This document shows, in pieces, positions 815-44,652 of a DNA stretch of 63,362 bases (its first letter is position 1; each line of letters starts with the position of its first letter). Origin of the DNA: a virus (lineage: Duplodnaviria; Caudoviricetes); IMG/VR virus record IMGVR_UViG_3300025030_000103, positions 1 through 63,362 of that record. One strand, 5' to 3'. The notes beneath the pieces were generated by a model. That model was given only the letters and a program-made list of their open reading frames with translations, was not told where the DNA came from and searched no databases. The position numbers and the translations under genes were made by a program.

Positions 815-1663
815 TTGCAAACTCAAGAAAAACCGCGAAGAAGAATCCTCTCTATAGAAGCCCGAGGCTCAACCCTTTTGAAAATCTTCACCGTTTTAGA
901 AGAGAAGGGAGTTGAGGTAAAAAACCTCTCAACCGCCATGCTAAGTTTTATAAACCTCCATCTGGAGCCGTATAATATCTTTGTCCCGCCGGACGAAGCT
1001 AAGTGCGAAGCTTTATTAGCGGAGAAGGTTAAGTTATCTGGCCATATGCGAAATGAGCGGATTAGAGCACAACAGCACTCTGCTCACACAACGGTGTCTA
1101 ACGGACAGAAAGCGACAAGAGAAGCAAAGGAGAATCTTTCAAGAGCCTTAACCGATAGTGACTTTTCGCCGATACATGTAATGGACCCGGCAAAACCTAT
1201 GCCCAGTGAAACAACTTTACAATTCGGCGAAAGATTGCATTCAAATTTCGAAGCGAATCTGGTGGATGTGGATGATCTCTTGAGAAAGGCAAAAGAGATG
1301 CCTATTGAGGACATCTATCCATCGAGCAAACCAGCTATTAATGGCTTCGATGATCTTGAGGAAATTATCAAAGGTGTTTTGGAAGAACAGAAGTTGGAAG
1401 AAGAGATAGATCTTCTTAGCAAGATAACCATCGGAAACATAGAAGACCTCCCGATGGTTGCTATCAAGAAGCAAACACCGAAGGCTCTTGATATCCGCGA
1501 TCCAAGGTTGAAGGATGATAAGCTTTGGAAGACCTTCTCAGGTGAAGCCGATGAAGCTAAGATGTTTGCTCTAAGGATTGTCTATTACAACTTACCCGAA
1601 GAATATTGGTCTTCGAAGAAAGCCGAAGAGATGCTTCTCTATATTCTCAACAACCTACCCTAG
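815..1663 (+). CDS. Hypothetical protein, 282 aa
   Basis: Long ORF; GGAGG upstream of a TTG start. Confidence 0.75.
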   Translation: MQTQEKPRRRILSIEARGSTLLKIFTVLEEKGVEVKNLSTAMLSFINLHLEPYNIFVPPDEAKCEALLAEKVKLSGHMRNERIRAQQHSAHTTVSNGQKATREAKENLSRALTDSDFSPIHVMDPAKPMPSETTLQFGERLHSNFEANLVDVDDLLRKAKEMPIEDIYPSSKPAINGFDDLEEIIKGVLEEQKLEEEIDLLSKITIGNIEDLPMVAIKKQTPKALDIRDPRLKDDKLWKTFSGEADEAKMFALRIVYYNLPEEYWSSKKAEEMLLYILNNLP

Positions 1664-3550: not shown

Positions 3551-4039
3551 GATGCGAATGCCAAGATGTCGATACTGTAACAGGGAAATGGAGTGGTCAA
3601 CTCGACTCAAAGAGTACAGATGTAATTGCTCAGAGTTTAAAGAGGCGGATACAGCTGAGTACAACAAGCAAAGACAGGAAGAGGATTAACCTTTCAATTC
3701 AAATTTCAAACAGAAACTAATGGAGGTTTTATAAGATGAGCTTTTTACCTAGAACTGCAAAACCGAAAACAAAGGTATATTTCATATGCACTTTAACCTT
3801 ACCCGAGATAGAAACAGAAAGTGCTGATGATATCGAGACACTTGCGGATATCGCAAGAAAGTTTAATGGCAAATTAACTGTAGAAACCCAAATAGAGGAG
3901 GCAAACTAATAGATATAAATTAAAATCCATAGAAAGAAAAAAAGGATTGTAATCTATGTAACCATATGGTAATGTAATGTTTCGATGATTGACGAAGCCT
4001 TGGCAACAAGGCAAAAACCCAAAAAGGAGATTGTACAAA

Positions 4040-4550: not shown

Positions 4551-4589
4551 AATAGAGGGAGGTTGAAATAAAGGCCTCCCTCTATTTTT
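4551..4589 (+). terminator. Rho-independent terminator
   Basis: aatagagggagg...cctccctctattttt stem plus T-tract. Confidence 0.85.
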
Positions 4590-5322: not shown

Positions 5323-5509
5323 TAAAGCTGATGTGTGTGTTATAGATATCTGCCCTCATAGAGCTATACATAGCACAGATGGTTTCGAATATGAAGAAGA
5401 GACTGATGAAGGAGATTTTGCACTCACCTGCAGTTGCTTCGACGAAACAACTTGCCCGCAATTCCCAGGTGAAACAGTAACCTGTCTTGAGGTAAAAGAA
5501 AAAGATTAA
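5306..5509 (+). CDS. Small Cys-rich acidic protein
   Basis: GGAGG RBS; several Cys; stop codon lies inside a 29-bp palindrome copy. Confidence 0.6.
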   Translation: MKVQCNKADVCVIDICPHRAIHSTDGFEYEEETDEGDFALTCSCFDETTCPQFPGETVTCLEVKEKD

Positions 5510-5672
5510 ATTCAAATTTCGAATTGAAACTTAGGAGAGCTTATGCCAGTGTATAATACGCACAAGTGCGATACCTGTGACTGGACTACAAATAGCTTCA
5601 TAGAAGATGCAACGATCAAATGTAAGAATCCAAAGTGTTCAGGCACTATGCATCTTAGGAGGTAAATTCAAA

Positions 5673-8063: not shown

Positions 8064-8195
8064 ATGGCTGTTATGAAAAGCTGCGCTAATACCGACTGCA
8101 AGTATCAGGACGAGAACGCAGAAGGTAACTGCACCCTCGAGGAAATCACGCTTGACAACTGCGGAGATTGCGAACAACTGGACGAAGAAGAGTAG
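8064..8195 (+). CDS. Small Cys-rich protein
   Basis: AGGAGGTG RBS; MAVMKSCANTDCKY... Confidence 0.6.
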   Translation: MAVMKSCANTDCKYQDENAEGNCTLEEITLDNCGDCEQLDEEE

Positions 8196-8270
8196 TTTAA
8201 ATTCGAATTTCAAATCGAATCTAAACACAAACGAAACCTCAACCAAACAAAAGAAAAGGGAGAAACACAG

Positions 8271-8823: not shown

Positions 8824-9018
8824 ATGAAACTTGGCAGGATTACAACCTGTGACTGTTGTACAAAGCAAATAGTAAGAGGGAGCGGAACACCTGATAAATA
8901 CGTTACATACGGGCCGATTACGTTGTTAGGAATAAACCAACATGCCTGTAGAAGTTGTGCAGAAGATTTAGATGAAAACGGGCTCTTCCCGGAGGAGGCT
9001 GCTCAATGCCTCGTGTAA
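8824..9018 (+). CDS. Small Cys-rich (CxxC...CxxC) protein
   Basis: GGGAGG RBS; CDCC...CRSC. Confidence 0.6.
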   Translation: MKLGRITTCDCCTKQIVRGSGTPDKYVTYGPITLLGINQHACRSCAEDLDENGLFPEEAAQCLV

Positions 9019-9212
9019 GCATCATTATCGAAGACTCACTAGATCAGAGAATGAACAAGTTCCTTCCATGGGGCGTGAAGAACAAAGTAATGGAAGCTCT
9101 TTGTGAAAATCTCTGTGATGCAGTTGAAACTCATGGGAAGGAATTGGTAGGTTTGATTCTCAACAAAGATTGGAATGCCGTAACTAAACATGTTTCTAAG
9201 AAGGAGGTATAA
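9006..9212 (+). CDS. Possible ribbon-helix-helix DNA-binding protein
   Basis: N-terminal alternating strand RVSIII followed by helices; GGAGG RBS. Confidence 0.5.
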   Translation: MPRVSIIIEDSLDQRMNKFLPWGVKNKVMEALCENLCDAVETHGKELVGLILNKDWNAVTKHVSKKEV

Positions 9213-9214
9213 CA

Positions 9215-9433
9215 GTGGCTTTACTAGAAGACATTGTAACTACAATAAGCGAAATGTCTGATGAAGAGCTTTTCGAAGCTTTAAAGGATATCAGACACAA
9301 TCGTACTAAAGAAACAATAATCCTCACTAAAGCAAGAGAAAAGAAGAACAGTGCAGATAAGGTTCTCGCAAATATGACTCCGGAAATGGCTAGAGCTCTA
9401 CTGGCTCAGATGGGAGTTGAACTTCCGAAGTAA
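9215..9433 (+). CDS. Small helical hypothetical protein
   Basis: AAGGAGG RBS; GTG start. Confidence 0.7.
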   Translation: MALLEDIVTTISEMSDEELFEALKDIRHNRTKETIILTKAREKKNSADKVLANMTPEMARALLAQMGVELPK

Positions 9434-9476
9434 CTTTGAATTTAAAATTTGAACATAAACTTAGGAGGATAAAATA

Positions 9477-10922
9477 GTGAGCTTCGGTGATATGCTTACA
9501 GGTGCAGTTGAAGATCAACCATCTAAATACCTTTTTGTAGAAGACATAGTTATCGGAGAAAGATTCAGGAAGGAGTACAACAAGATAGATGAACTCTGCC
9601 AATCTATAGTCGAAAACGGCCTGATGCATTTTCCTGTAGTTGATGAACAGAATAATCTGATTGCCGGCGGCCGAAGAATGACTGCTCTGAAAAAACTGGG
9701 CTGGACCCAAATCCCTGTGAGGGAAATGAAAGATGTCAGTCCTATCAAGCTCAGAGAAATGGAACTGGAAGAAAACCTCCAGAGAGAAAACTTAACCTGG
9801 CAAGAGGAGGTTGCACTTAAAAATGAAATCCTCCGCCTTAAGCAAGAGCTTCACGGCATTAAAGGCACAGGTCGTGCAGCAACTAATTCATCTGGGGTAT
9901 CTCAGAAAGACGTCGCCGAGATGCTTGGTGACTCCCAAGCTAACTTCTCTATGGACGTGGCACTTGCGAAGGCTATGGAGGAAATCCCAGAGCTTGCGGC
10001 CTGTTCAACTAAGGATGAAGCGCGCAAGAAGCTTAAGCAGATGCAAGAGCGTCTTATTGTAGAAGAACTTGGAAGGAGGCACCGTGCTACGAACACAATT
10101 CAAGTTGACAAAGGCGGAGCTACTGTTGTTGAAAACCCAGCTCTTGCAACCCAAAAGCCTAAGTTATCTTTCTACTCACAAGCAGACGCAAGCTTTAGAA
10201 TCGGTGATGCTATCGAAGGCCTTAAGAATCTCGAGCCGAGCACAACCCTGCGATATATCAACGTCGACACTCCGTACGGAATCGACCTTAATGCAATCAA
10301 GCGAGATAACGGTGGAGACGTTAAGATTATCGAATCAGATTACCGAGAAGTGGCTGCAGGAGATTTTCTCTTCCGCGATAAAGAGAGTGGAGAATGGAGA
10401 GGTTTCGCTTATGAAGTCGCATCCGAGTGCTTTAGGCTTTCTGCAGATGACTGCTCCATGACTTGGTGGTTTGCAATCCAGTGGTATCAGCCTCTCCTTG
10501 AAATGCTCCAGCAGGTAGGGTGGAAAGTAGATGCTATCCCTAACATCTGGGATACCGGCGAACAAGGTCAGACAAATCAACCTGAGCTGTATCTTGCAAG
10601 ATGCTATGAACCCTTCTTCTCTTGTAGAAAAGGCACTCCGGTTATCTTCAAGAGGGGAAGAAGTAATATCTTCCGGCATAAAAAACTCAACGGAGATAAG
10701 AAGATTCACCCTACGGAAAAGCCTTTATCCCTTATGAAGGAGGTCTTCGAAACCTATGCTCAGCCGGGCTGTACAATCCTTGTGCCGTTTATCGGAAGTG
10801 GTAATGATCTACTCACTGGCTTTTCTATGGGCCATAGTACATTCGGCTTTGACCTTAATGAGGAGGTTAAGAAGAGATTCCTTATCAGGCTCGTTGAAAT
10901 GGAACAGGCCGGAATTCTATGA
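9477..10922 (+). CDS. ParB-like CTPase + HTH fused to an N4/N6 DNA methyltransferase (beta order)
   Basis: ParB motifs IAGGRRMTAL and ELEENLQRENL; HTH SQKDVAEMLGDSQANFS; MTase motif IV variant VDTPYG, HPTEKP and motif I PFIGSG. Confidence 0.88.
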   Translation: MSFGDMLTGAVEDQPSKYLFVEDIVIGERFRKEYNKIDELCQSIVENGLMHFPVVDEQNNLIAGGRRMTALKKLGWTQIPVREMKDVSPIKLREMELEENLQRENLTWQEEVALKNEILRLKQELHGIKGTGRAATNSSGVSQKDVAEMLGDSQANFSMDVALAKAMEEIPELAACSTKDEARKKLKQMQERLIVEELGRRHRATNTIQVDKGGATVVENPALATQKPKLSFYSQADASFRIGDAIEGLKNLEPSTTLRYINVDTPYGIDLNAIKRDNGGDVKIIESDYREVAAGDFLFRDKESGEWRGFAYEVASECFRLSADDCSMTWWFAIQWYQPLLEMLQQVGWKVDAIPNIWDTGEQGQTNQPELYLARCYEPFFSCRKGTPVIFKRGRSNIFRHKKLNGDKKIHPTEKPLSLMKEVFETYAQPGCTILVPFIGSGNDLLTGFSMGHSTFGFDLNEEVKKRFLIRLVEMEQAGIL

Positions 10923-11128
10923 GTCAGAGTAAGATCGGCTCCTTCATAGAAAGTTGGGCGAATATCTTTATAGGTTGGGCAGTTGCAGTTGCAAGCCAGG
11001 TATTGATCTTTCCTCTTTATGGAATCAACTGCCCTTTGGAAACCAACATAAAGATCAGTCTCTGGTTCACAGCTATTTCTCTTATCCGAAGTTATACAAT
11101 AAGAAGAATCTTTAATCGCTTGCATTAG
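10919..11128 (+). CDS. Small two-TM membrane protein
   Basis: Two hydrophobic helices and an RSY..RR.F tail; ATGA-coupled to the MTase gene. Confidence 0.7.
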   Translation: MSQSKIGSFIESWANIFIGWAVAVASQVLIFPLYGINCPLETNIKISLWFTAISLIRSYTIRRIFNRLH

Positions 11129-11185
11129 ATTGCATTCGAAATTTGAATACAAACTGCATAGACGGTGCAGTTACTTGGAGGTTTT

Positions 11186-11353
11186 ATGGAAAGACGTTGT
11201 GGCAGTTGCCTTTGGAAGAAGGAAAATAGATGTTGCTTTAACCCGCCTGTGTTGGTAATGCAAAAAGATATCACAACATGGCAGCAACCGAAAGTTGAAG
11301 ACTCTGATTCTTGTAGCCAGTATAAACACTACAGGTCGGAGGACTGCGAATGA
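11186..11353 (+). CDS. Small Cys-rich protein
   Basis: CGSC..W, CC..PP, SCSQY; GGAGG RBS. Confidence 0.65.
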   Translation: MERRCGSCLWKKENRCCFNPPVLVMQKDITTWQQPKVEDSDSCSQYKHYRSEDCE

Positions 11354-13968
11354 GCTTCATTCAAATGGACGGTCTACAAACACAAACTGAAGGCATATCC
11401 CAAATAATCCCTGGTAGTAGGATCGTAGTCATAGGAGATTCTCCATGCTCAGACGACTTCAAAACTCGCAAGCCTTTCTCTGGTACTGCTGGGACTCTCT
11501 TAGGGCAATGCTTGGGTACTGCTGGTATTCAACTCTCATCGTTATCCGTTATCTTCTTAAACCCGACTGGCATCAGCTGCGCAGGTCTATGGACAGAGAA
11601 GGGAGGTTTTACAACTACAGGTGCCGACGCAATAGGGAATATCTGTTCCATAGTCAAGGTCATAAATCCTAATGTCATTGTCCCTCTAGGTGAAATCCCC
11701 TTCCAAGCTGTCTGCCGAAGATCAGGGATAACCAAGTACAGAAACTCAATGCTCGAAGCAGCTGGGAACTTTACTCGCGAAGATGGAACGCCCTACAAAG
11801 TTATCCCAACGCTATCTCCAGCAACCGCAATTAGACAATATCTCTTAAGATATCACATCGCCAATGACTTTCGGAGGATTCATGAAGAGAGTTTTTACCC
11901 AGACATTCGAGTCCCGGCCCGTACTTTACTGGTCCAACCCAGTTTCCTTGAATGTAAGGCTTTTCTTCTTGAGCTTATCACCGATAAGAAACCTTCCGCT
12001 TTCGATATCGAGGTTTACAAAGGTGAAGTTTCTTGTATCTCTTTCGCTCCTGATTCCTTGCTATCTATGTCAATCCCTTTCGACTCGCGTTGGACTATCG
12101 AAGAGGAAGCAGAACTCTGGAGATTGATTGAGGCTTATCTAGGCGATGCCTCTATAGCAAAATATCTCCAAAACGGAATGTTTGATAGAAGCTTTCTTTT
12201 GATGCGGAATAAGATTATCGTAAGAGGCATAGTCCACGACACAATGATAAAGTGCCATCTGAACTACCCTGACTTCCCGAAAGGCTTAGGTTTCATCTGC
12301 TCCCTCTTTACAAGGGAACCCTACTATAAAGACGACGGCAAGACTTGGTTCAATGATATCAAAGGTAGCGGCCATAACAACATTAATCAGTTCTACGAGT
12401 ATAATGCAAAAGACTCTGCGGTGCTTCTCGAAGCTGATCCTTTGCTACAAGATGAGCTAGTCAAGTTTGGAAACGCTGAGACATATGACTTCTGCCGCAG
12501 ACTCATGGAGCCACTTCTGTTCATGGCAACCAGAGGAATTAAGGTTAACAAAGATAAGTTGCAGGCACATAAAGTTGAAGCAACAGCGTCCCTTGAGAAG
12601 GCGCAAATCGAGTTGAATAAACTCTGCGGCTTTGCTCTTAACGTCTCAAGTCCGAAACAATGCAAAGAGTACTTCTACGGCGTCAAAGGTTATAAGCCAA
12701 TAACCGCCTTGAAGAAAGACCCTGTTACTGGAGAGCGAAGTTCAAAAGCTACAACAGACAACAAAGCAATGAAAAAACTAGCCCTTAAAGGCTGCAAGGA
12801 GGCAACCCTTGTCCAACAAGTACGTGCTTACAGGAAGCTTATCGGTACCTACCTTAATATTAGCTTTGATAGTGATGGCCGTCTTAGGTGTTCTTGGAAT
12901 ATCTCTGGCACTAATAGTGGTAGACTTTCTTCCAGCGCAACGATATTTGGCACCGGAACTAACATGCAAAACCTTCCTAAAATCTTTAAGGCCTTCTTAG
13001 AGGCTGACGAAGGTTATCTCATGTGCGAGATGGACAAAGCACAAGCTGAATGGGTTGTCGTAGCTTATCTCTGTGGCGATGCTAATATGATCCGCACCAT
13101 AGAGAATAGGGAAGATGCGCATATCAATACAGCCCATCTAATGTTCGGCGCACCGAAAGAGCTTATAAAGTTAGAGGATGAAATCCTAGGGAGTGAGTCT
13201 GATGAATCTGTTATTCTACAGAAGCGGAAAGAGTATTGCCCTGATATCCTTCGCTATCATCCTATTCCTAATATGTCCTGTAGGCAAGCCGGGAAGAAGT
13301 CAAATCACGGTCTCAACTACGACCTCGGAGCGAACGGATTTGCTGCTACATATGGTCTCGATCTCAGGGAAGCGCGGCGCTGCTGTGATCTCTACCACAG
13401 AGCTTATCCTTCTATTAGAATCTGGCACGCACATATCAGAACGCAATTGGGAAAAGATCGGACTCTTGTAAATCTGTTTGGAAGGAAAAGGAGGTTTTTA
13501 GATCGCTGGGGAGATGATCTCTTTAAAGCAGCTTACGCCTATATCCCTCAGAGCACGGTTGCTCAGCTTCTTAACAAAGCCCTGATTGATTGCTACGAGA
13601 AGCAGACTTTGCCAGACTTTGAGTTCTTGCGAAAGCTAGAGCTACTCTCCCAAGTGCATGACTCTGTCCTCTGGCAAAGGATTCTCTCAGATCTTAGAGG
13701 CTACGCCCAGTGTATGCTGGCTATAAAGGAGTTTGCTGAAGTCCCCTTGGTGGCTAATGGCAGATCATTTATAATCAGAACAGATGCAAAAGTAGGCTTT
13801 GATGCAAAGAATCTTGAGAAAGTCTCCATAGAAGGAACACTAGACGAAGTTACAGCAAACCTCGAACAGGTTGTCGCAAAGCTACTTGAGAAGCAAAAAC
13901 AAACCTCAACCGCTATCGACTTAGATGAATTGGAGGACTCTGAAGATGATGAAGTTGAGGAGGGGTAA
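11350..13968 (+). CDS. polA: Family A DNA polymerase with N-terminal uracil-DNA-glycosylase-like domain and 3'-5' exonuclease
   Basis: UDG-like VIGDSP/PFSG.AG/IVPLG; exonuclease FDIE, QNGMFD, YNAKD; SGRLSS; polymerase motifs A MDKAQAE, B RQAGKKSNHGLNY, C QVHDS. Confidence 0.93.
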   Translation: MSFIQMDGLQTQTEGISQIIPGSRIVVIGDSPCSDDFKTRKPFSGTAGTLLGQCLGTAGIQLSSLSVIFLNPTGISCAGLWTEKGGFTTTGADAIGNICSIVKVINPNVIVPLGEIPFQAVCRRSGITKYRNSMLEAAGNFTREDGTPYKVIPTLSPATAIRQYLLRYHIANDFRRIHEESFYPDIRVPARTLLVQPSFLECKAFLLELITDKKPSAFDIEVYKGEVSCISFAPDSLLSMSIPFDSRWTIEEEAELWRLIEAYLGDASIAKYLQNGMFDRSFLLMRNKIIVRGIVHDTMIKCHLNYPDFPKGLGFICSLFTREPYYKDDGKTWFNDIKGSGHNNINQFYEYNAKDSAVLLEADPLLQDELVKFGNAETYDFCRRLMEPLLFMATRGIKVNKDKLQAHKVEATASLEKAQIELNKLCGFALNVSSPKQCKEYFYGVKGYKPITALKKDPVTGERSSKATTDNKAMKKLALKGCKEATLVQQVRAYRKLIGTYLNISFDSDGRLRCSWNISGTNSGRLSSSATIFGTGTNMQNLPKIFKAFLEADEGYLMCEMDKAQAEWVVVAYLCGDANMIRTIENREDAHINTAHLMFGAPKELIKLEDEILGSESDESVILQKRKEYCPDILRYHPIPNMSCRQAGKKSNHGLNYDLGANGFAATYGLDLREARRCCDLYHRAYPSIRIWHAHIRTQLGKDRTLVNLFGRKRRFLDRWGDDLFKAAYAYIPQSTVAQLLNKALIDCYEKQTLPDFEFLRKLELLSQVHDSVLWQRILSDLRGYAQCMLAIKEFAEVPLVANGRSFIIRTDAKVGFDAKNLEKVSIEGTLDEVTANLEQVVAKLLEKQKQTSTAIDLDELEDSEDDEVEEG

Positions 13969-15179: not shown

Positions 15180-15268
15180 GTGCATAACCTGCGGAACAAA
15201 GCAAGCTAACGACAAGTCTTGCAAGGGTTGCTATGGAACAATCTTTATTACACTAAAGGAGGTTAAAA

Positions 15269-15637
15269 GTGGAGCGCCCTGATAACAATCCAAAATCTAT
15301 CTTCGGTATGAAGAAGCCTGCTCTGGGTCTTATACCTTCCCCAGCGCTGATTCACACCGCCATAGCTTTTCAACTAGGCGCAGCTAAGTATGGGCCATAC
15401 AACTGGAGAGAGAAGTCAGTATCTGCTATGGTTTATCTTAATGCCGCCGAACGTCACTTGAGAGCTTTCCTAGATAGGGAAGATGTAGAAGAAGAGTCTG
15501 GAGCTTGCCACTTAGGTCACGTAATGGCATGTTGTGCAATTATCCTAGATGCCATGGCGGTAAATAATCTTATAGACGACCGACCAATCTATGCCCCTGT
15601 TGGAGATATCTTGAAACAATTTACTAAGGAGGATTAA
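15269..15637 (+). CDS. dATP/dGTP diphosphohydrolase domain protein (DUF5664-like)
   Basis: NPK..G.KK, GAAKYGPYNWR, RHL, ESG..HLGH..C, DDRP. Confidence 0.85.
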   Translation: MERPDNNPKSIFGMKKPALGLIPSPALIHTAIAFQLGAAKYGPYNWREKSVSAMVYLNAAERHLRAFLDREDVEEESGACHLGHVMACCAIILDAMAVNNLIDDRPIYAPVGDILKQFTKED

Positions 15638-15640
15638 ACA

Positions 15641-15823: not shown

Positions 15824-15876
15824 ATAAGAAAAGGGAGATAGACAATAGCTAAGTCTATCTCCCTTTCTTTTATCTA
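15821..15876. terminator. Bidirectional terminator where the two genome arms converge
   Basis: tagataagaaaagggagatagac...gtctatctccctttcttttatcta, a long inverted repeat with A/T tracts on both sides. Confidence 0.88.
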
Positions 15877-15964: not shown

Positions 15965-16007
15965 CTATATCACCTCCTTTAGTTTAAATTCGAAATTCGA
16001 ATGGAAA

Positions 16008-16202
16008 CTAATCCGTGCTGATTATCTTAGCCTCTTTCTTATTAGTCGCCCAACCGAGCAGACCGAAAACAACCGCCATAGCAAGTTGCAGCCAATCACC
16101 TTGATGCATGGTGCCAGAGCTTGCAGAAACAACCGGCTCAGCGGCGGTTACAACGGCACCAACCGCACCAAGAATGGTAGTGAGTTTATCTTTATCTTGC
16201 AT
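16008..16202 (-). CDS. Putative holin
   Basis: Two hydrophobic segments and a basic C-terminus; next to the lysin. Confidence 0.6.
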   Translation of the reverse strand: MQDKDKLTTILGAVGAVVTAAEPVVSASSGTMHQGDWLQLAMAVVFGLLGWATNKKEAKIISTD

Positions 16203-19800: not shown

Positions 19801-22800
19801 TTCCTTAGCTAATCTTAAAACATCCCTCCAATACTGCACACCATCAATAGCTCCGCCTAAAGTGTTTTCTTTTGCTCCTGATTGTTTTAGTACATTCAAA
19901 TGTTTAATACTATTTTCCAACTTTTTATCTACGTCATATATTACCTTCTCCCATATAAAAGCACTTCTATCTTTTGGCAAGGCTACGCGAGCTATAATTT
20001 TAGTTAAAATAGCTTGAGGAGACTCGTCTAAACGATAGAAGTTTTGCACTACGCCATTCAACTTAACGGTGACAGGCCCATCTTTCTCTTTAGATAATTT
20101 ATCCTTATACCACCTAGCAACTTTTTCATTACTAGCAAAGTACAATCCCCATCCATATACCTGCGCACCTTCCCCACTTCCGATATGCTTCGTAGAGAAC
20201 TTCTCAAACCTATGAGGCGTTCCATGCCATGCGGCAGCAAAACTATCTAGCATATCCATAAACATCTTTGCTTCTTCATCACTTACTTCATCGGGCACAG
20301 ATATCCGATCCCATGAGTTTAAATTCGAATTTTGAATTGAAACTGGTTCAGGTTGGAAGTCACTGTAATCAGCATTCCCAGCTATGATATCATTATACTG
20401 GTTTAGAAGAACCTCCAGTTGCATTGCAATATCACTATTTGAAGGGGCCTTCGAGAGCCTCTTAACAACCTCTTGCTTTGCCTCAATAGCTTCTTCTTTG
20501 CCTACCTTGGGAATGTCGGATACAGATACTTTCTTCCTTACAATAACTTTCTTCTCCGTCGCAGCTAGCTCTGCATTAACAGCTTCGGTCTCTTTAACAA
20601 CTTCTTGAACCTCCTCAGATATAACCCGCTTCTCATAGAGGATGGCTCTTTTAACTGCATTAGGGTTATGCTCAACCGCAGCCGCAAGCTTATTAAACAA
20701 CCTCATGTTAACAAACATCGGCTTAGGTCCTAGCTTGCCAAGGAAGTTCGCCGGATCACCTATGAAGTTCAGCCAAGTCTGTTCAAAAGACAAGCCGTGG
20801 TCGTCTGCATACTGTTGGATTTCCTGCTTGAAGTTAGTAATCAACCCCCTATAGTATTCGATACGCTTGGAGGTCGTACTCGAAGTGTTGATAAAATCTT
20901 TACCTGCTGCCGCGATAATAAGTTTATAGAACTCAGCTTCTCTTTGTGCGGTTGACCTACTTGAGGCAGTTATAGTCTTCAAAGGAACGAGACTATTCAG
21001 ATTCCCCTTAGCAAAGACAGTAACAGCATTACTGTACTTCCCCTCAATCTGCTTAAGCTGCCTCTTCTTGTTCTCAACCTCTACACTTGACATGCCAGTC
21101 TTAGTTATAGCCTTGATATCACTGCGAAGCTTAGATGCAATCTTCTCATCTTCCGGAGACATTACAGCTTTGCCTATTGTGTACCGTTCAAGTACTTTCG
21201 GATCAACAGCCTTTCTCAGCTTCGCAACTTGTCGCTTTCTTGAAAGAACTTTCCGTCCATCCTGCGCTGGAACCTCAATCAAGTTTGAATTCGAATTTTG
21301 AATTGAATCTAAACGAGAGGGATCGAAGATACTATTCAGCCAATCTGCGACAGAGTCTACAGCTAACGCAGTTGTATCTCCTTTCCGCTTCATCTTCGTC
21401 AGAGCCTTCCTAAACTGATTTGCAAGAGCCTTGAACCATTTATCTGCGAGGGTCAGCGGAGCCTTGTCAGTAGTCGCCCACTTAGTTATCTGGTTCGCAA
21501 GCCACTCTTTGCCGACATTAGTTCCGTCTTGTAGAACGGAGATGTAACCTATATCAACTGGCAGGTTAGGAGAAGCAAGGTTAAAGGGATACATATCTTT
21601 AGCTAGCTGCTCATTAGATACACCGCCATTAACCTTTGCGACATAGGCTTGATAGTCTGCCTCGATAGCCGTCTTCTGCTCTGTAGTGGCCTTATCGAAA
21701 TGTTCATAGGCGATCACATGCCCAACTGCTTCGTGGGTTACCAGCTCGAGAGTTTGGGCATCTGTATTACCAGACCCAACTGCAACTACATACCTACCTC
21801 CGGCTTTTAAAATAGCTGCACGAGGGGCATCAACTTGACTCATGTAATCAACTAGTTTAGTAACAGAATCTCCTAGCGCAGTCCCAATCTCTGGATTGCT
21901 TCTAAGATCTTCTACAGTAAGCACAGCTACTTTGGCCTTTGTATCTGTGCTAATAAGCAAATCTTCTGCATAGTTACTAAAAGATTGAAGAGCGGGAGAA
22001 CTCACCAAAAGCTCATCATCTTTAAGAGGGCTACCCAGATGTTGAACAATCATAGATGCGAAGAGCGGATCGGGCTGTTGTTCTTGTACAACTTGTGTAG
22101 TAGACTCAAGAGAATCTTCTTGCATCAACTCAGTATCATTCGCAAGTTCTTCAGGCGTTACCTCAGCTAGGTCCTTTACACTTTGAAGAGCTTCTTTAGT
22201 AGATGCAATAACTTCATCTTCGGTAGGCTGCCCTTCAGTCTGAGAGGGTGCCTCAGGCGCACCTTCTTCAATATCCCTAGCCGCCTCAGCTTCCTGTGCC
22301 GGTATCGTAAGTTCAAAAGCTTTTTCAAGATCTGCTTTCTCTTGTTTGATCTCTGCAAGTTGAACAACAGCTCCGCCGGGCATTTCTATCTGCGTTTCCC
22401 CAGCAGCTTCTGCTTCGGTTATAAAATCTTGAAGTTGGTTTACATAGTTAGTAGCGCGCCTCTTACTGTCAAACTGCACAACCTTGCCTGGGATGCCCAT
22501 AAGGCTAGACTGCATCAAAGTAGCAACAGCCGTATCAATCTGATCAGACAGATGCTGCTTTGAGAAGATATAATCTAAGGGAGCCCCAGAAAAGTCATTA
22601 GCTCCTTGCAAAGCTGTTGCGCTTGATTCACCTACAACCTCACTAATCAGATTCTGCACAAACGGCTTGAGAACGCCTTGACCAGCTTTCGCAGCCTTCC
22701 AGAACTGCCCCATGAAATAAGCTCCTCCTAGCTCAGTCGCAACTTCGACAGTGCCATGGAAAGCTGCATCCCTCTGCGCAGTCTCTACATCAATGCCTTG

Positions 22801-24813: not shown

Positions 24814-24853
24814 TTGTTTTCTCCTTTGTATTCAAAATTTGAATTGAAACTTA

Positions 24854-26186: not shown

Positions 26187-27492
26187 TCTGAGCTCCTGTC
26201 CAGCCTAAACCTGATCGGCCGTCTACTCTTATTGTCTGTACATAAAGATTGGAAATCGAACCACTCGTGAAGTTCTTAGCAATTCTCTTAACAGCCATTA
26301 CGTTTCCTGTAAGATGTGGATACGTAACTCCGTTGTCGTTTTCAAGAAATTCTCTCGAAGCATAATCTACTTGCTTCTTCGTAAGTGTCAGCTCTGTATA
26401 CTTCGAACCACTGCTATCATCTTGACAATAAACCTCAGAAATTGTCTTATCCCCACCTATGTTAAAGTCCAACTTACTGGTCTTAAACCAAGCAGCTGTT
26501 TCGGTTCCAGAAACTTTTAAACCGTATAAAACTGAGCCTTCTTTGAAAAGGCCCGATACCTCAACACTTCTCTGATACATCCCACTTTTATTCAAAACAA
26601 AGTTTCCATTCGAATTTCGAATCCAAACTTCATCAAGGTCCCTTGAGTAGAAGAGGCTTGCATCTGTGTCTCGCAGAATCCACTCGTAATCAAGAACCTC
26701 AGGCCCTTTCTCTGCTTGCAAGACTTTAGGAGTTCCGGTAACTCGACAGAGCTTCCCAAAGGTGTCTATAAAATAAACCTCTTCACCATTCCCAGCACAG
26801 CTCGCTTTATCCCTTGCGCCAACACCCCAGATTTTCTTATACGAAAAAGTCTGAAGGGCGGGCTTATAGATTGCAACGCCAGCATCTCCGATCGCGCAGA
26901 AACCTTTGTCGAGAGGAAGAACCTTTAGAACATTGCCAATATCTGGATTATGGAATCCAGCTTCTGTGTCTTTACCTACTGTGAAATTAACAGCTCCGAT
27001 CTTCGACCAAGCTACGAAAGTACCATCTAGATTATTCCAAGCAGATGTTAAACCGCCTAAGATAAGTTGCCCATGTAAATCTGTCATAGAGTTCGAAACT
27101 GGCAAATCCGCATCAAAGGGTTTATCTAAACTAGCTACGCCATCGCTTATAAAGATAGTAACATCACCATTAGATATAATCCCAAACTTGATAAAGTTCG
27201 CAGAATCCCAATGCTTGTTAGTCTCAGTGAAGTCCAAAACCTTTGTGAGAACACCGCCAGATATAGAATAACAAGCACTATTATCAACCGCCCAGCTCTG
27301 GTTGCCAATTCTAAACTCCTGAGTTTTCTTACTAACAGGAACAAGAGTGAGTTTATCTACATACTTTAACTTAGATTCCCACGGCTTTAGATTAACAAGC
27401 TCAACGAAGCCTTCTTGATTAACTCCAGCTGGATGCGAAGATAGCAAGCCCTTTCCAAGGAGTTTCGATAAATCGAACTTGTTTTGTCGCAT
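26176..27492 (-). CDS. Tail tubular B / P22 gp10-like stabilisation protein
   Basis: Beta-rich, 438 aa; VAWSKIG, VYFIDTFG; synteny. Confidence 0.65.
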   Translation of the reverse strand: MRQNKFDLSKLLGKGLLSSHPAGVNQEGFVELVNLKPWESKLKYVDKLTLVPVSKKTQEFRIGNQSWAVDNSACYSISGGVLTKVLDFTETNKHWDSANFIKFGIISNGDVTIFISDGVASLDKPFDADLPVSNSMTDLHGQLILGGLTSAWNNLDGTFVAWSKIGAVNFTVGKDTEAGFHNPDIGNVLKVLPLDKGFCAIGDAGVAIYKPALQTFSYKKIWGVGARDKASCAGNGEEVYFIDTFGKLCRVTGTPKVLQAEKGPEVLDYEWILRDTDASLFYSRDLDEVWIRNSNGNFVLNKSGMYQRSVEVSGLFKEGSVLYGLKVSGTETAAWFKTSKLDFNIGGDKTISEVYCQDDSSGSKYTELTLTKKQVDYASREFLENDNGVTYPHLTGNVMAVKRIAKNFTSGSISNLYVQTIRVDGRSGLGWTGAQNAN

Positions 27493-29653: not shown

Positions 29654-29688
29654 ACAGCCTCCTGAGTTTATATTCAAATTTCGAATAT

Positions 29689-29730
29689 AAACTGAAGAGG
29701 GTTTGAAGTTATCTCTCCCTCTTCAGTTTT
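29689..29730 (-). terminator. Terminator-like hairpin after the major capsid gene
   Basis: aaactgaagaggg...ccctcttcagtttt; overlaps a palindrome copy. Confidence 0.7.
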
Positions 29731-31088: not shown

Positions 31089-31928
31089 CTAGCGAAGATT
31101 AAGCATATCCGCCACAGCTGGATCAAAAAACTCTTCTTTACCGGCGGGCCTAGATGTTCCAGTTCTCCTACTCCCAGCAAAAGCAGGTTTTTGCTTCTGC
31201 GAAGACTGGCTTCGGTCTGCAACTTGTGCAGCCGGATTCTTCAGTCCAAGTCTTTTTCGACTTTCATCGGCCGTAAGCTGGAAGATTTCGTTAAAAGTTT
31301 TATCTTTATGCTTCGTCTCCATTTCGCTCATCACAAACTTTACAAAGCTACCATACTGCCGAAGGTCCTGATTAGCTTCATAGAACTCACTAACAGCCTG
31401 CTGTACCATCACTTGTTGATTTACGATCTGACTGATAACCTGCGGAAGATTAGCTGCAATCTGTCCGACTACGTCCTGCTGCGCCCTTTGGATGGCCGTC
31501 ACAATTAGTGTGGGATTGTCAATAACTTGATCTAATTCCTCATCTGTGAGATATGCCTGAGTTGCGGTAACTTGCTGCTTTTGCGCAACTTGCTGAGTTT
31601 GTGCCTGCGCCTGCGCTTCAGGTGCTTGCTCACCTTGGGCCACGGGATATATCTGCTGTACCTCCGCACCTCCAAGTCGCTGTGTCAGTTCAAGTATCTG
31701 GGCTCTAAGGGTTTCTTCCACAGTCGGTTCTGTTACCGCAGATTCCTGAACCGCATCAACTACAGGGGCCTGATCAACTGGAGCGCTATCTTCCAGATTC
31801 GATTCAAATTCCGAATTTAAACTATCTTGATTGTCCTCAGCTTTTTCCGCTTCCACAGGAGCTATGCCAAGCAAATCTCCCATCAATACCTGCTGTTCTG
31901 CTTGTGCCGCAAGTTCTTCTTCATCCAT
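31089..31928 (-). CDS. Capsid scaffolding protein
   Basis: Acidic, Q-rich and helical; between portal and MCP. Confidence 0.7.
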   Translation of the reverse strand: MDEEELAAQAEQQVLMGDLLGIAPVEAEKAEDNQDSLNSEFESNLEDSAPVDQAPVVDAVQESAVTEPTVEETLRAQILELTQRLGGAEVQQIYPVAQGEQAPEAQAQAQTQQVAQKQQVTATQAYLTDEELDQVIDNPTLIVTAIQRAQQDVVGQIAANLPQVISQIVNQQVMVQQAVSEFYEANQDLRQYGSFVKFVMSEMETKHKDKTFNEIFQLTADESRKRLGLKNPAAQVADRSQSSQKQKPAFAGSRRTGTSRPAGKEEFFDPAVADMLNLR

Positions 31929-34198: not shown

Positions 34199-34312
34199 AT
34201 CTTTATCTCCGTTGAAGATTATATTCAAAATTTGAATTTAAACTGTTCTGATGAAATCTATGCTCTGCGCGTATCTTGCCATGGGGCGGCTCCTATTGCA
34301 GTGATTAGTGGG

Positions 34313-36310: not shown

Positions 36311-36351
36311 AAATCCTCCAGTTTGTGTTCAAAATTCGAATTTAAACTAAG

Positions 36352-36991: not shown

Positions 36992-37036
36992 AAAAATCTC
37001 CAGTGTTTTCGGTAAGTTTCGATTTGAAATTTGAAT

Positions 37037-38632
37037 TTAAACTATTCTGAATTTTACAGTTTTTCTATCTGCTCTATCTTCTATCTTCAATTCCTCATAT
37101 TCATCTTCTATTGTAAAGGGCTTGGCAGTTTTCTCTCTACCAGCACCTTGATATGAGAACGTTCTATTCCCGAGGTCAAACATATCTATGCAGTTCGCAA
37201 GACAGTCCATGACGTCTTTGAACTTTGATCGCGGAAAGCTCAGGAGCTGCGTCTCCAAAGTCCCATGCACATGAACATCTTCATTATGATAAACAGCTCC
37301 CATTCGATAGAATGGACTGAGGGCTGCGATCCTAAGATCCTTATCCTTCGTAGCTTTCAATTCATGTATATCGTAGAACTTCGGCCTAAGTGCTGCGGCC
37401 TGCTGCATCGGATAGGTTATGAAGTTATTTAAGCCAGTCACCTCAATGGCAATGGTATGAGTTCCTAACCGATCAGCCATATTAAAGGCTTCTTCGAAAA
37501 TCATATCAGGTGTGAGACGGGCATTGAGAGCGTCTCGAACCAAGATTCTATTGTTTGCAGAATCGAAGCCGATACCAAGAATAGCCGTAAAAGCACTTGT
37601 TGTATTCGCAGTCTTTGCTGGATCAACTATAACAACATTCTCGATATTCGTGAGCATTATCTTGTCTCTCTGCTCACTGTAATACCGAAACATACTTTTC
37701 TGAAAGGCTGAGGCTCCCTTCGCTATAACTATATTCCGCCACTCCCGGTAGAAGACATCTAAAAGACCTCTCTTCTCATACATAGCGGCTTTGAATTTCA
37801 GCTCATCATCGGTAAGATACTCCGGCCAGACACTCCTAAACTCATCATCACAAGCCTCAAGGCGGAGAGTTTTAAAAGTCTCTCTCTGCTTCATCATCTG
37901 CAGAGTGCCGTTAATCTCGGCTTCCTCTTCATCCTTATCGGACTCGTCAATGAGATTGGCCAGTAAGCTATCTTCGTGGAGAACAGTACCAATTAGAACA
38001 ACTCGCGTCTTCCCTGTCGAAGCTTGATCTCGAGCACCAAGCAAGTCTGCAAAGAACCACTCTTTCAGCTTCGCCCTAGACATTTCATTCATTACATCTT
38101 CTGCATCTTCAAGATCATCTACGAGAAAGATAGAAGGTCTATGCTTCCCCCACTTCAGACCCCTGACCTGGCTTCCAGCACCTTTAGCTTGAATAAAACA
38201 AAAAGCTCCCTTATCATCAGAAAGTTCTATCTCCCCTTTCTCTTCGGCCCATTTAACCCCTTTTAGATCGCCAAAAAGTTCTTTTATGATAGAATTCTCT
38301 TGAAGCTCCTTCGCAAGAGTTTTAACCTTCGCTGCAGCTTCGCTGGCTGTTGAAGATATATAGACTATATAAGGTGCAAGCCGGAACAAAGCTAACCGGC
38401 CGATAAAACCCAGACCAATAGTAGTAGTCTTTCCAAAGCCCCTCGGAGCTGCAATGGCAACCAGCTTAAAAGCATCATCATCTATGATCTCAAAAATCTG
38501 ATTATGCACTGTACAGAATGGTCTTGTAAAATGATCTTCAAAGAGCGTCACAGCTGTAAGGGCCGTTGAATCTAGGCAAGGCAGAATAAGATCATCAATC
38601 TCTTCTTGGCTTAAAAGAAGTGGCATACGCAT
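37037..38632 (-). CDS. terL: Terminase large subunit
   Basis: APRGFGKTT Walker A, LVDDLED Walker B, IGTVLHED, nuclease VDPA and DVMD. Confidence 0.93.
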   Translation of the reverse strand: MRMPLLLSQEEIDDLILPCLDSTALTAVTLFEDHFTRPFCTVHNQIFEIIDDDAFKLVAIAAPRGFGKTTTIGLGFIGRLALFRLAPYIVYISSTASEAAAKVKTLAKELQENSIIKELFGDLKGVKWAEEKGEIELSDDKGAFCFIQAKGAGSQVRGLKWGKHRPSIFLVDDLEDAEDVMNEMSRAKLKEWFFADLLGARDQASTGKTRVVLIGTVLHEDSLLANLIDESDKDEEEAEINGTLQMMKQRETFKTLRLEACDDEFRSVWPEYLTDDELKFKAAMYEKRGLLDVFYREWRNIVIAKGASAFQKSMFRYYSEQRDKIMLTNIENVVIVDPAKTANTTSAFTAILGIGFDSANNRILVRDALNARLTPDMIFEEAFNMADRLGTHTIAIEVTGLNNFITYPMQQAAALRPKFYDIHELKATKDKDLRIAALSPFYRMGAVYHNEDVHVHGTLETQLLSFPRSKFKDVMDCLANCIDMFDLGNRTFSYQGAGREKTAKPFTIEDEYEELKIEDRADRKTVKFRIV

Positions 38633-38770
38633 AGCCCTTGTGTTGGTTGTTTTATCTAAGGCAAAAGCGACCCCTTCGGGATCGCCGATAAGTTTCCATT
38701 CAAATTTTGAATTTAAAGTTATTCAAAGCGCGCCCTTTGAACAACCGCCTGGCCCCTACGGCGCCGGCCT

Positions 38771-39515: not shown

Positions 39516-40134
39516 TGTATTAGTTCCTTTGAAAGAAAAGATCCGCTGCGCTTGCAGTTGTAACTAGAAAGCCAGAGCAGCTCTCTATTTAAGGTCATTG
39601 TATCATATAGGCCTTTCAAAAACAAGGGTTATTTTAGAAGCAATTTTGATCATTTACACCTAGCATATAGAGAAAAATCTTAGCAAAAACTTGGTAAGTT
39701 TCAATTCGAAATTCGAATATAAACTGAGGCCGTCGAGTGATCTACAAAGAGCAAAATTGCGCTTTATACTGAAATTGGTGCGAGTTTTATCGAAGAGGGT
39801 CCCCGCGCGCGTAGGTGGCCAAAAACCCCCGTCTGGCACCCCCCTTTCGAATGTTGGCGCTTTTTGCATCTTGGCACGTGGGCTGCAATGTGTTGGCTGT
39901 CAACAACGGGACGTGTTACCGTCACATGGGACCATGCCATGCCGTTCCGAGCCATCGACCATCGAGACAATCCATGAACGTGGAGAAAGCCGGACCACAT
40001 TGTGCCAAGCGGGGCGATTGTATACGCCGTAACGAGCAAAGCACAGCGAACGGATGGGCACCGAACACACATGGACACATAGCGAATCAGGTGCGTTATG
40101 TTATATCGCCCGGCATATCAAAGGGGGTTATGAC

Positions 40135-41285: not shown

Positions 41286-41709
41286 CCTAACAGATATGCC
41301 CTTGGATTCAATAGCATAGCTTTGGAGTTTTAAAGCAGTTTCGATTCGAAAATCGAATTGAATCTATTTTCTCTAAAAGGAGGTGATTGTTATCATGCTT
41401 AGTCCCATTGAACTGCAGGACATTCAAGGCTATCTGGATGGCTACTTGAATGGGCGGCCATTAGTTGGCTTCGACCGAATGAGAGTGTATGAGCTAATTC
41501 AAGCTGTGCTGGACGAACTTGAGATGGAGGAGCGATGCAAGAGCACAGACTAGTATATGTCTACAGTCGCATAAACGGGAGGGTGAAGACAAGAGCTACG
41601 CTTATTGCAACTAATATGGGCCTGGGATCTCTTACGCTGGCCTCTCTAGGTAAAGAGCCTTTGAAAGTTCCAAAAGCCTAAACATCTTTCAATAAATCGA
41701 ACACAAACT

Positions 41710-42174: not shown

Positions 42175-42761
42175 TTCTGTTAACGACCATTAATTGATCA
42201 AATACACAGTGCCGGCCTCCCTAAGTTGTTTGGCCTTATCACCTTTATGGGACACACCAAGTAGATATAACAACCCCGGAGACGTCAGTCGACTAAAGTA
42301 GACAAACCCGACTGATGTTTTGCAAAGGCCCGGAGGTGAAGCCGACTAAGGTTAGAGCAACCTCACCAATATCTTGAACACTTTCCACACTGATACGTAA
42401 CACGCCATATAACTACTATAGAAACGCCCGGAGTCCCGCAGGGCGACCAGAGTTGTAAGCCCCTCAACATCTTGTATAATTACAAATAGATTGAATTCAA
42501 ATTTCGAAGAGAAAGATTGTCCGGCGTTCTTATCTTATGCAAAGCAACCAGTGAGCGCCGCAGGCCGAACTGTGCAGGCTCTCCCTTAGTAAGTTAAAGA
42601 AACAGCACGAACATAACGGTACGAAGAAAAGAGTTCCGGCTCTTGTAACTTAACCAATGCACATAAGTTTATATTCGAAATTCAAATTGAAACTGATGGA
42701 TTTGCTATAAGTTAAGCAACATTGCAGATGTAAGAAAAACCAACAAGTTGTGTAAAGAATA

Positions 42762-42808: not shown

Positions 42809-43036
42809 ATGGGACATAGACCTTCTATGGTGTTGAAATTGCAAGCTGTGATGCAGCAATATGGAGTTCTTATGAAGAGCAAAGAACAGAAGTACGAAGA
42901 AGCTGTTGTTAGAAACCTCAAGACTTTTGGAATAAAATCTAAACACAAGTACATGACCCTGACGCAGATGAAACACTGCGTTGGAATCCGGCAGAGCGAT
43001 ACCCGCTTTGATCATCTTTGGAGTGGCAACATTTAG
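42809..43036 (+). CDS. Small basic hypothetical protein
   Basis: Directly downstream of the promoter; stop codon lies in a palindrome copy. Confidence 0.5.
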   Translation: MGHRPSMVLKLQAVMQQYGVLMKSKEQKYEEAVVRNLKTFGIKSKHKYMTLTQMKHCVGIRQSDTRFDHLWSGNI

Positions 43037-43183
43037 TTTCAATTCAAATTTTGAATAGAATCTCTGCTCACACAACGCACTTTGATAGGAAACAAAACAG
43101 ATAGACTCATCCCGAGTAGGAGATTGAACATCTCCATCTAGTTCAGCTTCTTTTACAATAAAACAAAGGGAGGGTTTAAAAAG

Positions 43184-44507: not shown

Positions 44508-44652
44508 CCCACAGAAATTATAAACCCACGAAGCAAGATTACATTCTCGCAATTATCTTGAGCCTGCTCTTAACAGCTGGAGTTTCTTTCGTAGATTGGC
44601 TTTGTAAATAACTTTGCATTCAAAATTTGAATATAAACTAATGGAGGCTTAT

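Follow-up and report, generated by a model that had tools for sequence, protein, structure and literature searches.

Proteins in which a ParB-fold domain is fused to an N6_N4-type DNA methyltransferase (MTase) are frequent and enriched in phages and prophages, and they count among the commonest ParB-fold architectures in phages; the 2025 survey that describes them leaves their role open, placing it 'perhaps in anti-defense' (PMC12704722). Other ParB-like proteins activate phage thymine dioxygenases (PMC13229309). A separate line of work concerns the Cluster O mycobacteriophages (Corndog and its relatives), which carry 34 copies of a 17-bp palindrome, TGTTCGGNNNCCGAACA, with an A/T-rich center; about one third of these repeats lie inside genes, they are not linked to promoters, and in 2015 they were read as the site of a dimeric protein, with their function unexplained and the ParB-like gp90 among three candidate binders (PMC4351075). 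Here we analyze a 63,362-bp virus contig from IMG/VR (Duplodnaviria; Caudoviricetes; record IMGVR_UViG_3300025030_000103, positions 1 to 63,362; hereafter the window), which encodes a 481-aa ParB-MTase fusion and carries a family of dispersed palindromes. The window locus, together with more than 60 relatives, offers a candidate cognate site for ParB-MTase fusions, one that varies from phage to phage along with the helix-turn-helix (HTH) of the protein. Our best explanation of the whole, to which we give a rough probability of 45%, is that the palindromes are parS-like sites that load ParB-MTase, which then spreads over the phage DNA.

The ParB-MTase gene (9477..10922, + strand) encodes, in order, a ParB/Noc-type NTPase domain, an HTH, a long helix, a linker and a beta-class DNA MTase, as seen with Pfam, profile comparisons, AlphaFold2 and Foldseek. 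A first-pass annotation of the sequence had described the protein as a combination of ParB motifs, a ParB-type HTH and a beta-class MTase, and this description holds. Pfam detects ParB_N (PF02195) at residues 33-102 (31.4 bits, cut-off 26.3) and N6_N4_Mtase (PF01555) at residues 263-466 (41.3 bits, cut-off 26.7), while the AGGRR and EENLQRE boxes can be read directly in the translation. The N-terminal CTPase-fold domain (residues ~17-126; 9525..9854, +), recognized by PF02195 and by its invariant residues, comprises the GERFR, AGGRR and EENLQR boxes. Across 58 aligned family members no variation is seen at R29, R31, G64, R66, R67, E96, E99, N100 or R103 (Box I GERFR, Box II GxxRxxA, Box III ENxxR), and given this invariance of the Box I-III pocket residues the nucleoside triphosphate (NTP) switch is under selection. 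The AlphaFold2 model (predicted local distance difference test, pLDDT, 87.6) shows the NTPase domain, HTH helices at 143-149 and 154-169, a 29-residue helix, a linker and the MTase, with the linker between the HTH part and the MTase amounting to ~25 residues of low confidence. The DNA-binding HTH region (residues ~133-175; 9873..10001, +) is delimited by the helices of this model, by the profile alignment to Noc/ParB and by the top covariation window discussed below, and the helix at residues 154-169 (9936-9983, +) is the predicted recognition helix. The N-terminal 200 residues align to Noc/ParB through the DNA-binding domain (Noc 7ng0, profile E 9e-24, profile positions 5-199; Foldseek 7nfu).

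In the place of the C-terminal dimerization domain of ParB stands the MTase of the beta class (N6-adenine/N4-cytosine; residues ~232-477; 10170..10907, +), supported by Pfam, profile and fold. Its motif IV (264-267) precedes motif I, F-I-G-S-G (438-442), of which G440, S441 and G442 are invariant in the 58 members. The MTase is also predicted to hold the protein together as a homodimer: the interface score ipSAE reaches 0.65 against 0.00 for the best control, with the interface in the MTase at residues 334-398 and 426, and across three runs at least 73% of the contacts are common and the pLDDT of the partner is at least 70. Of the proteins with solved structures, 20 of 30 found as pairs and 1 of 23 found as single chains attain this mark; the pass of ParB-MTase may be explained by its likeness to solved beta-class MTase dimers.

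With regard to the DNA, the first-pass annotation had pointed to two 29-nt palindromes, one on each side of the fusion gene. Both are present, at 9433-9461 and 11127-11155, and both are imperfect, with 9 and 11 of the 14 arm pairs complementary, respectively, by reading. They are not a pair, however, but two of 23 copies of a family with the consensus AGTTTnnATTCRAAWTTYGAATnnAAACT, a copy being defined by at most 4 mismatches over the 25 specified positions. All 23 lie in 1-45,720, about one every 2 kb, and no copy was found in the foreign 45.85-63.36 kb part of the record (discussed below). The 16-nt core of the family, with up to 3 mismatches allowed, is matched 35 times against 2.03 expected, a count that was reached in none of 100 shuffles. 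An exact scan of IMG/VR with the 29-mer pattern of the window returned 0 other contigs.

The 29-bp palindrome has four conserved blocks, and its variable positions allow one to ask whether the arms are conserved as a stem or as two half-sites. Watson-Crick combinations occur at the variable pairs 6-24, 7-23 and 12-18 in 6, 4 and 12 of the 23 copies, respectively, against 7.6, 7.1 and 11.3 expected if they were independent. Since the variable arm positions are complementary no more often than independence predicts, it is not base pairing that is selected but two equivalent half-sites. Hence, judged from its pattern of variation, the palindrome is the two-fold site of a dimeric DNA-binding protein rather than a hairpin, a signature that argues against terminators, RNase sites and cruciform promoters. 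The idea that the copies act at the RNA level, as terminators, RNase sites or mRNA stabilizers between genes, could draw on their intergenic location and on the fact that each copy can be folded, with stems of up to 14 pairs. Beyond the missing compensatory variation at the three variable pairs, it is opposed by the want of a T-run after the copies, by the conservation within the genome of sequence and not of structure, and by the intragenic position of some copies. A terminator scan found nothing at the sites save one terminator-like call, on the 8195-8226 copy, a scan of Rfam gave no family match and a tRNA scan gave nothing. The chance that the palindromes are RNA hairpins is thus in our view next to negligible. 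In the orientation of variable positions 6 and 24 relative to transcription there is an excess of 11 versus 3 by reading, which is not significant.

The placement of the copies bears on what a protein bound to them would do. By the longest open reading frame (ORF) map most are intergenic. Going along the genome, the copies (given without strand) are found at 1232..1260 (3 mismatches), in or at the 5' part of ORF 815-1663; 3690..3718 (4 mismatches), with a gene start 18 nt downstream; 5503..5531 (1 mismatch), with a Shine-Dalgarno sequence and ATG 12 nt downstream; 8194..8222 (2 mismatches), from the family scan; 9433..9461 (3 mismatches), directly 5' of the ribosome-binding site (RBS) of the ParB-MTase gene; and 11127..11155 (1 mismatch), over the stop of the DUF7220 gene, 2 nt of which it overlaps. 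The copy at 15981..16009 (0 mismatches) marks the junction of the plus- and minus-strand gene blocks. Within the latter, 20316..20344 (0 mismatches) and 21282..21310 (1 mismatch) lie inside the gene for a 2173-aa virion protein, 24823..24851 (2 mismatches) is intergenic, 26601..26629 (0 mismatches) is inside a 438-aa gene (26176-27492), 29665..29693 (0 mismatches) falls between the gene for the major head protein and the one that follows, with a start 12 nt downstream, and 31795..31823 (2 mismatches) is near the 5' end of ORF 31089-31928. These are followed by 34216..34244 (1 mismatch), 18 nt ahead of the start of the portal gene, 36320..36348 (1 mismatch), 10 nt upstream of the start of a 665-aa gene, 37015..37043 (1 mismatch), just past the large terminase gene, 38691..38719 (1 mismatch), which separates the small terminase gene from the large one, and 39697..39725 (0 mismatches), close to where the gene blocks diverge. 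The remaining copies are at 41337..41365 (2 mismatches; family scan), 42488..42516 (4 mismatches) and 42666..42694 (1 mismatch), both in a gene-poor stretch, 43035..43063 (1 mismatch; family scan) and 44611..44639 (1 mismatch), 14 nt upstream of a gene start.

The spacing of these sites is more even than chance would have it, with a coefficient of variation of 0.57 against 0.94 for random placement (P 0.003), so that the proposal of the first-pass annotation that the sites are spaced to cover the genome stands as far as their distribution is concerned. The largest gap between sites is 4854 nt, where random placement gives a mean of 7386 (P 0.04), and without the intragenic copies in the 6.5-kb virion gene a gap of 8.8 kb would open. 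Such an even, gap-filling pattern fits limited-range loading sites better than operators.

The operator alternative nevertheless deserves close attention. Here ParB-MTase, or its ParB half, would be a global regulator in the manner of KorB of RK2, itself a ParB-family clamp dependent on cytidine triphosphate (CTP) with dispersed palindromic operators (PMC11790492); it would bind the palindromes, stay there or slide a short distance, and repress or time the transcription or translation of adjacent genes, with methylation as a side activity or a second layer of marking. About 11 of the 23 copies do lie 10-31 nt upstream of an RBS or start codon, which suits regulation equally well, some sites stand at operon junctions (15981 and 39697), and in relatives they recur at conserved places, for example just 3' of the primase gene. 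On the other hand, a scan for sigma-70-like promoters gave no match at any site, and promoter-like matches were fewer than in shuffles (16 versus 28.3), although the consensus employed may not be that of the host; at least 3 copies lie deep in long genes with homologs (20316 and 21282 in the 2173-aa gene and 26601 in the 438-aa gene); and the sites are evenly spaced and not bound to promoters. Furthermore, no KorA-like partner was identified, with the qualification that no search aimed at co-repressors was made, and the authors who described the Cluster O repeats judged a role of those in transcription initiation to be unlikely (PMC4351075). We regard KorB-like regulation as unlikely on balance, with a chance that is nonetheless appreciable.

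Two observations on particular copies stand apart from these arguments. The stretch 41337-43063 holds four palindrome copies in 1.7 kb of gene-poor sequence, together with a 57-nt inverted repeat (41857-41913 and 42118-42174, 77% complementary), and may represent an origin or else a terminal or control region. Contigs assembled from public runs (X1, X2 and X4) break or switch strand at palindrome copies (44639 and 43000/44607), and a loose end at 44639 runs on into the flank of the 38691 copy; these breaks are an assembly-graph effect of the repeat and no evidence of rearrangement.

To see if related phages have comparable sites, we collected 12 loci from IMG/VR with ParB-MTase as the query and 80 with the primase (of more than 531 primase relatives), to which several whole records were added. 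The closest named relative is the Desulfofustis phage LS06-2018-MD01, with 33% identity in ParB-MTase and an equal gene order, whereas distant kin of the primase (~28% identity) occur in Pseudomonas phages including 119X and PaP2. A megablast of positions 9000-25000 of the window against a phage collection and a query of IMG/VR with the single protein PolA gave no match. Many of the loci have palindromes of their own, mostly of 17-19 bp and of the type TGTnnnAAWTTnnnACA, with 2-6 copies per ~20 kb, one of which commonly lies just 3' of the primase gene. The Desulfofustis phage (L001) has 9 copies of ATGTCCCAAATTGGGACAT, G002 has 8-10 copies of GTGGAACATAATGTTCCAA and G005 has 11 copies of a 25-mer palindrome. 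A three-copy palindrome initially noted in G006 was discarded, as only one good copy was left after a rescan. In their general form the sites of the relatives presumably resemble chromosomal parS, and we take that of L099 to be about one base away from the canonical sequence. In the inner 15-mer the window and G001, which has the closest ParB-MTase, differ at mirror-image positions, and this is what a co-evolving dimer would be expected to produce.

As to which protein reads these sites, the first indication comes from G002 and G003. Their virion modules are unrelated to those of the window, and they share only five proteins with it, namely the nuclease, the AAA_24 ATPase, ParB-MTase, PolA and the primase, yet they have dispersed palindromes genome-wide. 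ParB-MTase is the sole one of the five with a recognized HTH or any other sequence-specific DNA-binding fold. The second indication is phyletic. By tblastn the fusion is present in 70 of the 80 primase-anchored loci. Of the 10 that lack it, 6 have too little upstream sequence to be scored (less than 4 kb), whereas ~10 kb is available for L030, L031, L032 and L071; when the whole records behind these four and L029 were searched, ParB-MTase turned up in none of the 5, two of which are 100% complete. In the complete genomes G006 and G008 both ParB-MTase and dispersed palindromes are missing. The tree nevertheless groups them, with 100% support, with the window and G005, which are rich in palindromes, and all other conserved genes are retained in them, the 72-aa gene that lies upstream of the fusion's position among these. 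L071 represents a second, separate lineage devoid of both fusion and palindromes, such that the tree needs two label changes. Further primase queries with L030 and L071 added 5 new loci and none, respectively, and because they added so few the contrast with fusion-less phages rests on these two lineages.

A third indication was sought in covariation between the protein and its presumed site. For this half-site consensuses were derived for 44 sequences and compared with 33 non-redundant sequences of 37 ParB-MTases over 409 windows of 10 columns, with the whole-protein distance partialled out. The best window is residues 150-159 (partial r 0.28; permutation P 0.0005 with motif labels permuted), and the next-best are 152-161 and 153-162, so that the three together span the turn of the HTH and the first half of the recognition helix. 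A fourth indication is the homology of the N-terminal 200 residues to Noc and ParB, which extends through the DNA-binding domain. Taken together, the phyletic pattern, the shared module and the weak covariation of HTH and half-site suggest that the palindromes are, as proposed at the outset by the first-pass annotation, cognate parS-like two-fold protein sites for which ParB-MTase is the best candidate reader. We consider it probable that this protein is indeed what reads them.

Several of our results weigh against this identification, or against the wider scheme in which ParB-MTase is loaded and spreads. The first-pass annotation had expected fusion and palindrome to occur together across relatives, and here only one side of the expectation is clean: the two fusion-less lineages are palindrome-free, but a repeat was detected in about half of the fusion loci. 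In the strict pipeline at least 2 copies of a shared palindrome were found in 28 of the 70 fusion loci, 0 of the 4 fusion-less loci, 3 of the 6 unscorable ones and 1 of 240 shuffles, and the union of two pipelines raises the first figure to 35 of 70. Taken alone, the contrast of fusion and fusion-less loci is suggestive and not significant (one-sided P ~0.07, a hand calculation), because the four negatives amount to two events and several of the 70 fusion loci are near-duplicates. G005, for all its 11 palindromes, cannot be scored for the fusion, as its contig ends 416 nt upstream of the polymerase gene. Distant carriers of the fusion, namely G004, the Microcystis phage Mel-JY34 and the Vibrio phage VS-ABTNL-3, show no more than about 3 weak copies. 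The expected covariation of HTH residues with the motif fared likewise: the HTH window does rank first of 409, but the signal is weak, with a family-wise P of 0.08. Moreover, the primase as a control protein attains a maximum partial r of 0.22-0.25, the HTH is equaled or surpassed by other parts of ParB-MTase when the window size is 6 or 15, and some phages have equal half-sites and different recognition helices. With respect to the protein itself, the HTH_ParB model of Pfam gave no match at E <=0.01, the available part of the survey counts 11 NTP binders without naming an N6_N4-MTase fusion as one of them (PMC12704722), and motif IV of the MTase (10266-10277), which is DPPY in more than 90% of the 58 relatives, takes the form DFPY in the Desulfofustis phage and DTPY in both G001 and the window.

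Some of these points lend themselves to another explanation, in which the palindromes are bound by a different protein of the phage or host and the link to ParB-MTase is coincidental or indirect. There is no shortage of candidates, given the many small ORFs lacking an assigned function, and three DNA-binding candidates were named in the Cluster O phages (PMC4351075); the fusion loci with no detectable repeat and the weak covariation are also readily accommodated. A host factor is unlikely because the motif differs between related phages. For a phage factor the choice is narrowed by the five proteins that G002 and G003 share with the window and by the coincidence of the two losses, of fusion and of palindromes. 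The conserved 72-aa neighbor, which was considered specifically as an alternative binder, was rejected, since its family is also present in the palindrome-free G006 and G008. We therefore give another binder a rather small chance.

If ParB-MTase is the reader, the scheme of loading and spreading can be formulated as follows. A ParB-MTase dimer would place its two HTH recognition helices each on one half-site and so dock at the site as ParB, Noc or KorB do. A nucleotide, probably CTP, bound at the conserved N-terminal pocket would then shut the N-terminal gate, while the MTase-MTase dimer would keep the C-terminal side shut, substituting for the usual C-terminal domain of ParB. The closed ring would depart from the site and diffuse along neighboring DNA; the MTase would thereby become concentrated on phage DNA, and dense, even sites would give it whole-genome reach. 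We infer nucleotide-gated loading and spreading as a possible step, with odds a little short of even. That methylation of the entire genome is the purpose is a more doubtful proposition, and it is similarly doubtful, if attractive, that the protein is a nucleotide-gated sliding-clamp MTase marking in cis only the DNA that bears sites, that is, a self-selective device for epigenetic marking or anti-restriction.

Two further alternatives accept ParB-MTase as the reader and part with this scheme at a later step. In the first, the HTH serves solely as a target-recognition module, and methylation takes place at or beside each palindrome with no sliding, giving ~23 marked points that might be of use, for example, in replication, packaging or timing. 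The presence of HTH and MTase in one chain, connected by the ~25-residue low-confidence linker, would suit such a site-tethered enzyme, as would a 29-bp palindrome with four conserved blocks, in which there is room for both a binding site and a target. However, a plain tether has no need of the NTP-pocket residues that are invariant in 58 sequences, and it leaves unexplained the even spacing and the gap-filling intragenic copies. Although we see it as having a slim chance, a purely tethered MTase is, along with KorB-like regulation, a live rival to spreading. In the second, by analogy with a ParB-methylase of Bacillus cereus, the ParB-fold domain might nick DNA specifically at the palindromes. 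Some related podophages carry localized nicks, and the Pseudomonas phages 119X and PaP2 are among those with kin (~28% identity) of the window's primase. Nonspecific nicking by the ParB domain of the B. cereus protein, Bce_0392, is indeed cited (PMC5512222); that activity is nonspecific, however, and the residues conserved in our family are those of the NTP pocket, which makes site-specific nicking a very remote prospect.

Returning to the scheme of loading and spreading, the surroundings of the gene argue against partition as a simpler explanation. Matches to the ParA families PF13614 and PF01656 number 0 in the record, where the controls were positive in 14 of 14 genomes, in agreement with the first-pass annotation, which had recognized no ParA; partition is unlikely given this absence of ParA. 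The ParA-binding motif [LFI]G[KR]G[LFI], as defined in PMC12704722, was likewise not found in the N-terminus of the protein by reading. Two points of the annotation on the neighborhood do not carry over to the relatives at large. One was that the copy ahead of the gene serves autoregulation. This copy ends 1 nt ahead of the TAGGAGG that precedes the GTG start at 9477, and with 3 mismatches it belongs to the four weakest copies. The site closest to the gene in relatives is 0.5-1.8 kb upstream of it and not at the RBS, so autoregulation finds no support as a conserved feature. The other concerned a coupled membrane gene. The 69-aa gene at 10919-11128, whose ATG overlaps the stop of the 481-aa ParB-MTase gene, encodes a DUF7220 protein (E 4.7e-28), and it adjoins the fusion only in the window and G004, so it is no conserved partner. 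The 72-aa gene directly upstream of ParB-MTase (9215-9433, +) has a far wider association, as jackhmmer finds homologs upstream of that position in nearly all relatives, fusion-less ones included.

The record as a whole, whose phage is present in groundwater or sediment samples, looks like a composite. Positions 1-127 are repeated exactly at 45,721-45,847, GC content is ~45% before and ~55% past 45,847, the depth of the contig in public runs shifts at 45,847, and a 9-kb contig from a public run spans 45,847 into sequence matching the start of the window. Because of the 127-nt repeat, the changes of GC content and depth and the crossing contig, we regard positions 1-45,720 as a single phage genome of ~45.7 kb, either circular or circularly permuted. 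The last 17.5 kb (45848-63362) looks like another phage, joined via a short shared stretch; such a stretch is seen at 650-686, which is identical to 46474-46510. In the genome proper the plus-strand replication block encodes a PD-(D/E)XK nuclease, the AAA_24 ATPase, ParB-MTase, PolA and a DUF3987 primase, and the minus-strand virion block encodes the terminase, portal, major head protein and 2173-aa virion protein. The strongest terminator-like hairpin of the early region (4550-4587, +; 15 pairs and then a T-run) is unrelated to the palindrome family. A stand-alone gene at 15269-15637 (+) encodes the N-terminal domain of a dATP/dGTP diphosphohydrolase (PF18909, E 4.9e-25), with a homolog of 63-64% identity in G001; we take its product to be MazZ-like, and a PurZ-type adenylosuccinate synthetase (PF00709), sought for that reason, gave 0 matches in the record. 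In G005, the closest relative of the window, PolA has 1176 aa (L029, 417-3947) against 872 aa in the window, with an internal insert that looks intein-like by reading and a deaminase-like ORF upstream at the contig end.

Given that the putative site varies along with the HTH, the function of ParB-MTase becomes directly testable. Should it indeed load at the sites and spread, ParB-MTase would have no known precedent as a DNA-modifying enzyme that a ParB-type clamp targets in cis; this would explain how a phage could mark its own DNA fast and selectively, and mobile elements would be seen to use the ParB switch in a third way, in addition to partition and KorB-type silencing. Judging by the Cluster O mycobacteriophages, the combination of dispersed parS-like repeats and an orphan ParB-fold protein may be wider than the MTase fusion, with the C-terminal domain as a variable payload. 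If the sliding-clamp reading is correct, phages would thus have a general way to deliver differing C-terminal effectors along their own genomes.

Among known systems, Noc with its Noc-binding sites (NBS) and ParB/parS provide the best sequence and structure matches to residues 1-200 (Noc 7ng0; ParB/Spo0J 4umk, 6sdk and 6t1f). They share with ParB-MTase the Box I-III pocket and the HTH, with which their dimers recognize a short palindrome, and Noc also has many dispersed sites; a further likeness is that the sites of the relatives begin with TGT and end with ACA. Unlike Noc and ParB, the protein of the window is without the ParB C-terminal dimerization domain, ParA, the ParA-binding motif and the membrane-targeting helix, its C-terminus is a DNA MTase, its carrier is a lytic-looking phage and its 29-bp site has extra outer arms. 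It is the C-terminal domain and the ParA partner, both looked for and not found, that set ParB-MTase apart from canonical ParB. Like KorB with its OB sites on RK2, ParB-MTase is a ParB-family protein of a mobile element with palindromic sites across that element (PMC11790492). KorB is also among the PDB profile matches of ParB-MTase (8qa8, E 5e-7), and it differs in that an association of the sites with promoters was not seen here in the sigma-70 scan, though host promoters may differ. KorB also works with a ParA (IncC) and with the clamp-locking partners KorA and TrbA, and it has no enzymatic domain.

The C-terminal half resembles beta-class MTases such as CcrM, M.RsrI, M.MboIIA, M1.HpyAVI/DpnA and N4CMT (profile E 5e-26 to 5hek; Foldseek E ~1e-11 to 1e-12) in the placing of motif IV before motif I and in its predicted homodimer, and it is unlike them in being fused behind a ParB NTPase-HTH module and, in the window, in the DTPY form of motif IV. 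The combination PF02195 + PF01555 is that of the fusions surveyed in phages and of Bce_0392; in the available parts of the two papers concerned no cognate DNA site, HTH specificity or dispersed repeat is tied to these (PMC12704722, PMC5512222). The first-pass annotation had been aware of no fusion linked to dispersed sites. A search of the literature for a ParB-MTase fusion tied to such sites found none, so that this holds for the fusion; it needs qualification for the wider arrangement, since dispersed repeats and an orphan ParB-like protein were on record for Cluster O in 2015 (PMC4351075). The likeness to Cluster O extends to the 17-bp layout of the sites of the relatives, with 7-bp arms and an A/T-rich 3-bp center, their dispersal on the genome of a non-temperate phage, the third of the repeats that is intragenic, the orphan ParB-like protein and the lack of ParA (PMC4351075). 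Corndog gp90 differs from the protein of the window in having a ParB_N domain and no MTase domain, and the two match in BLASTP with an E of 0.12, which is not significant; the phage type and the host are different as well. The resemblance is therefore best taken, on the strength of sequence comparison and analogy, as a likeness of system that does not imply common descent. Even so, it suggests a candidate explanation for the Cluster O repeats, unexplained since 2015, and in phages that can be grown in a laboratory host.

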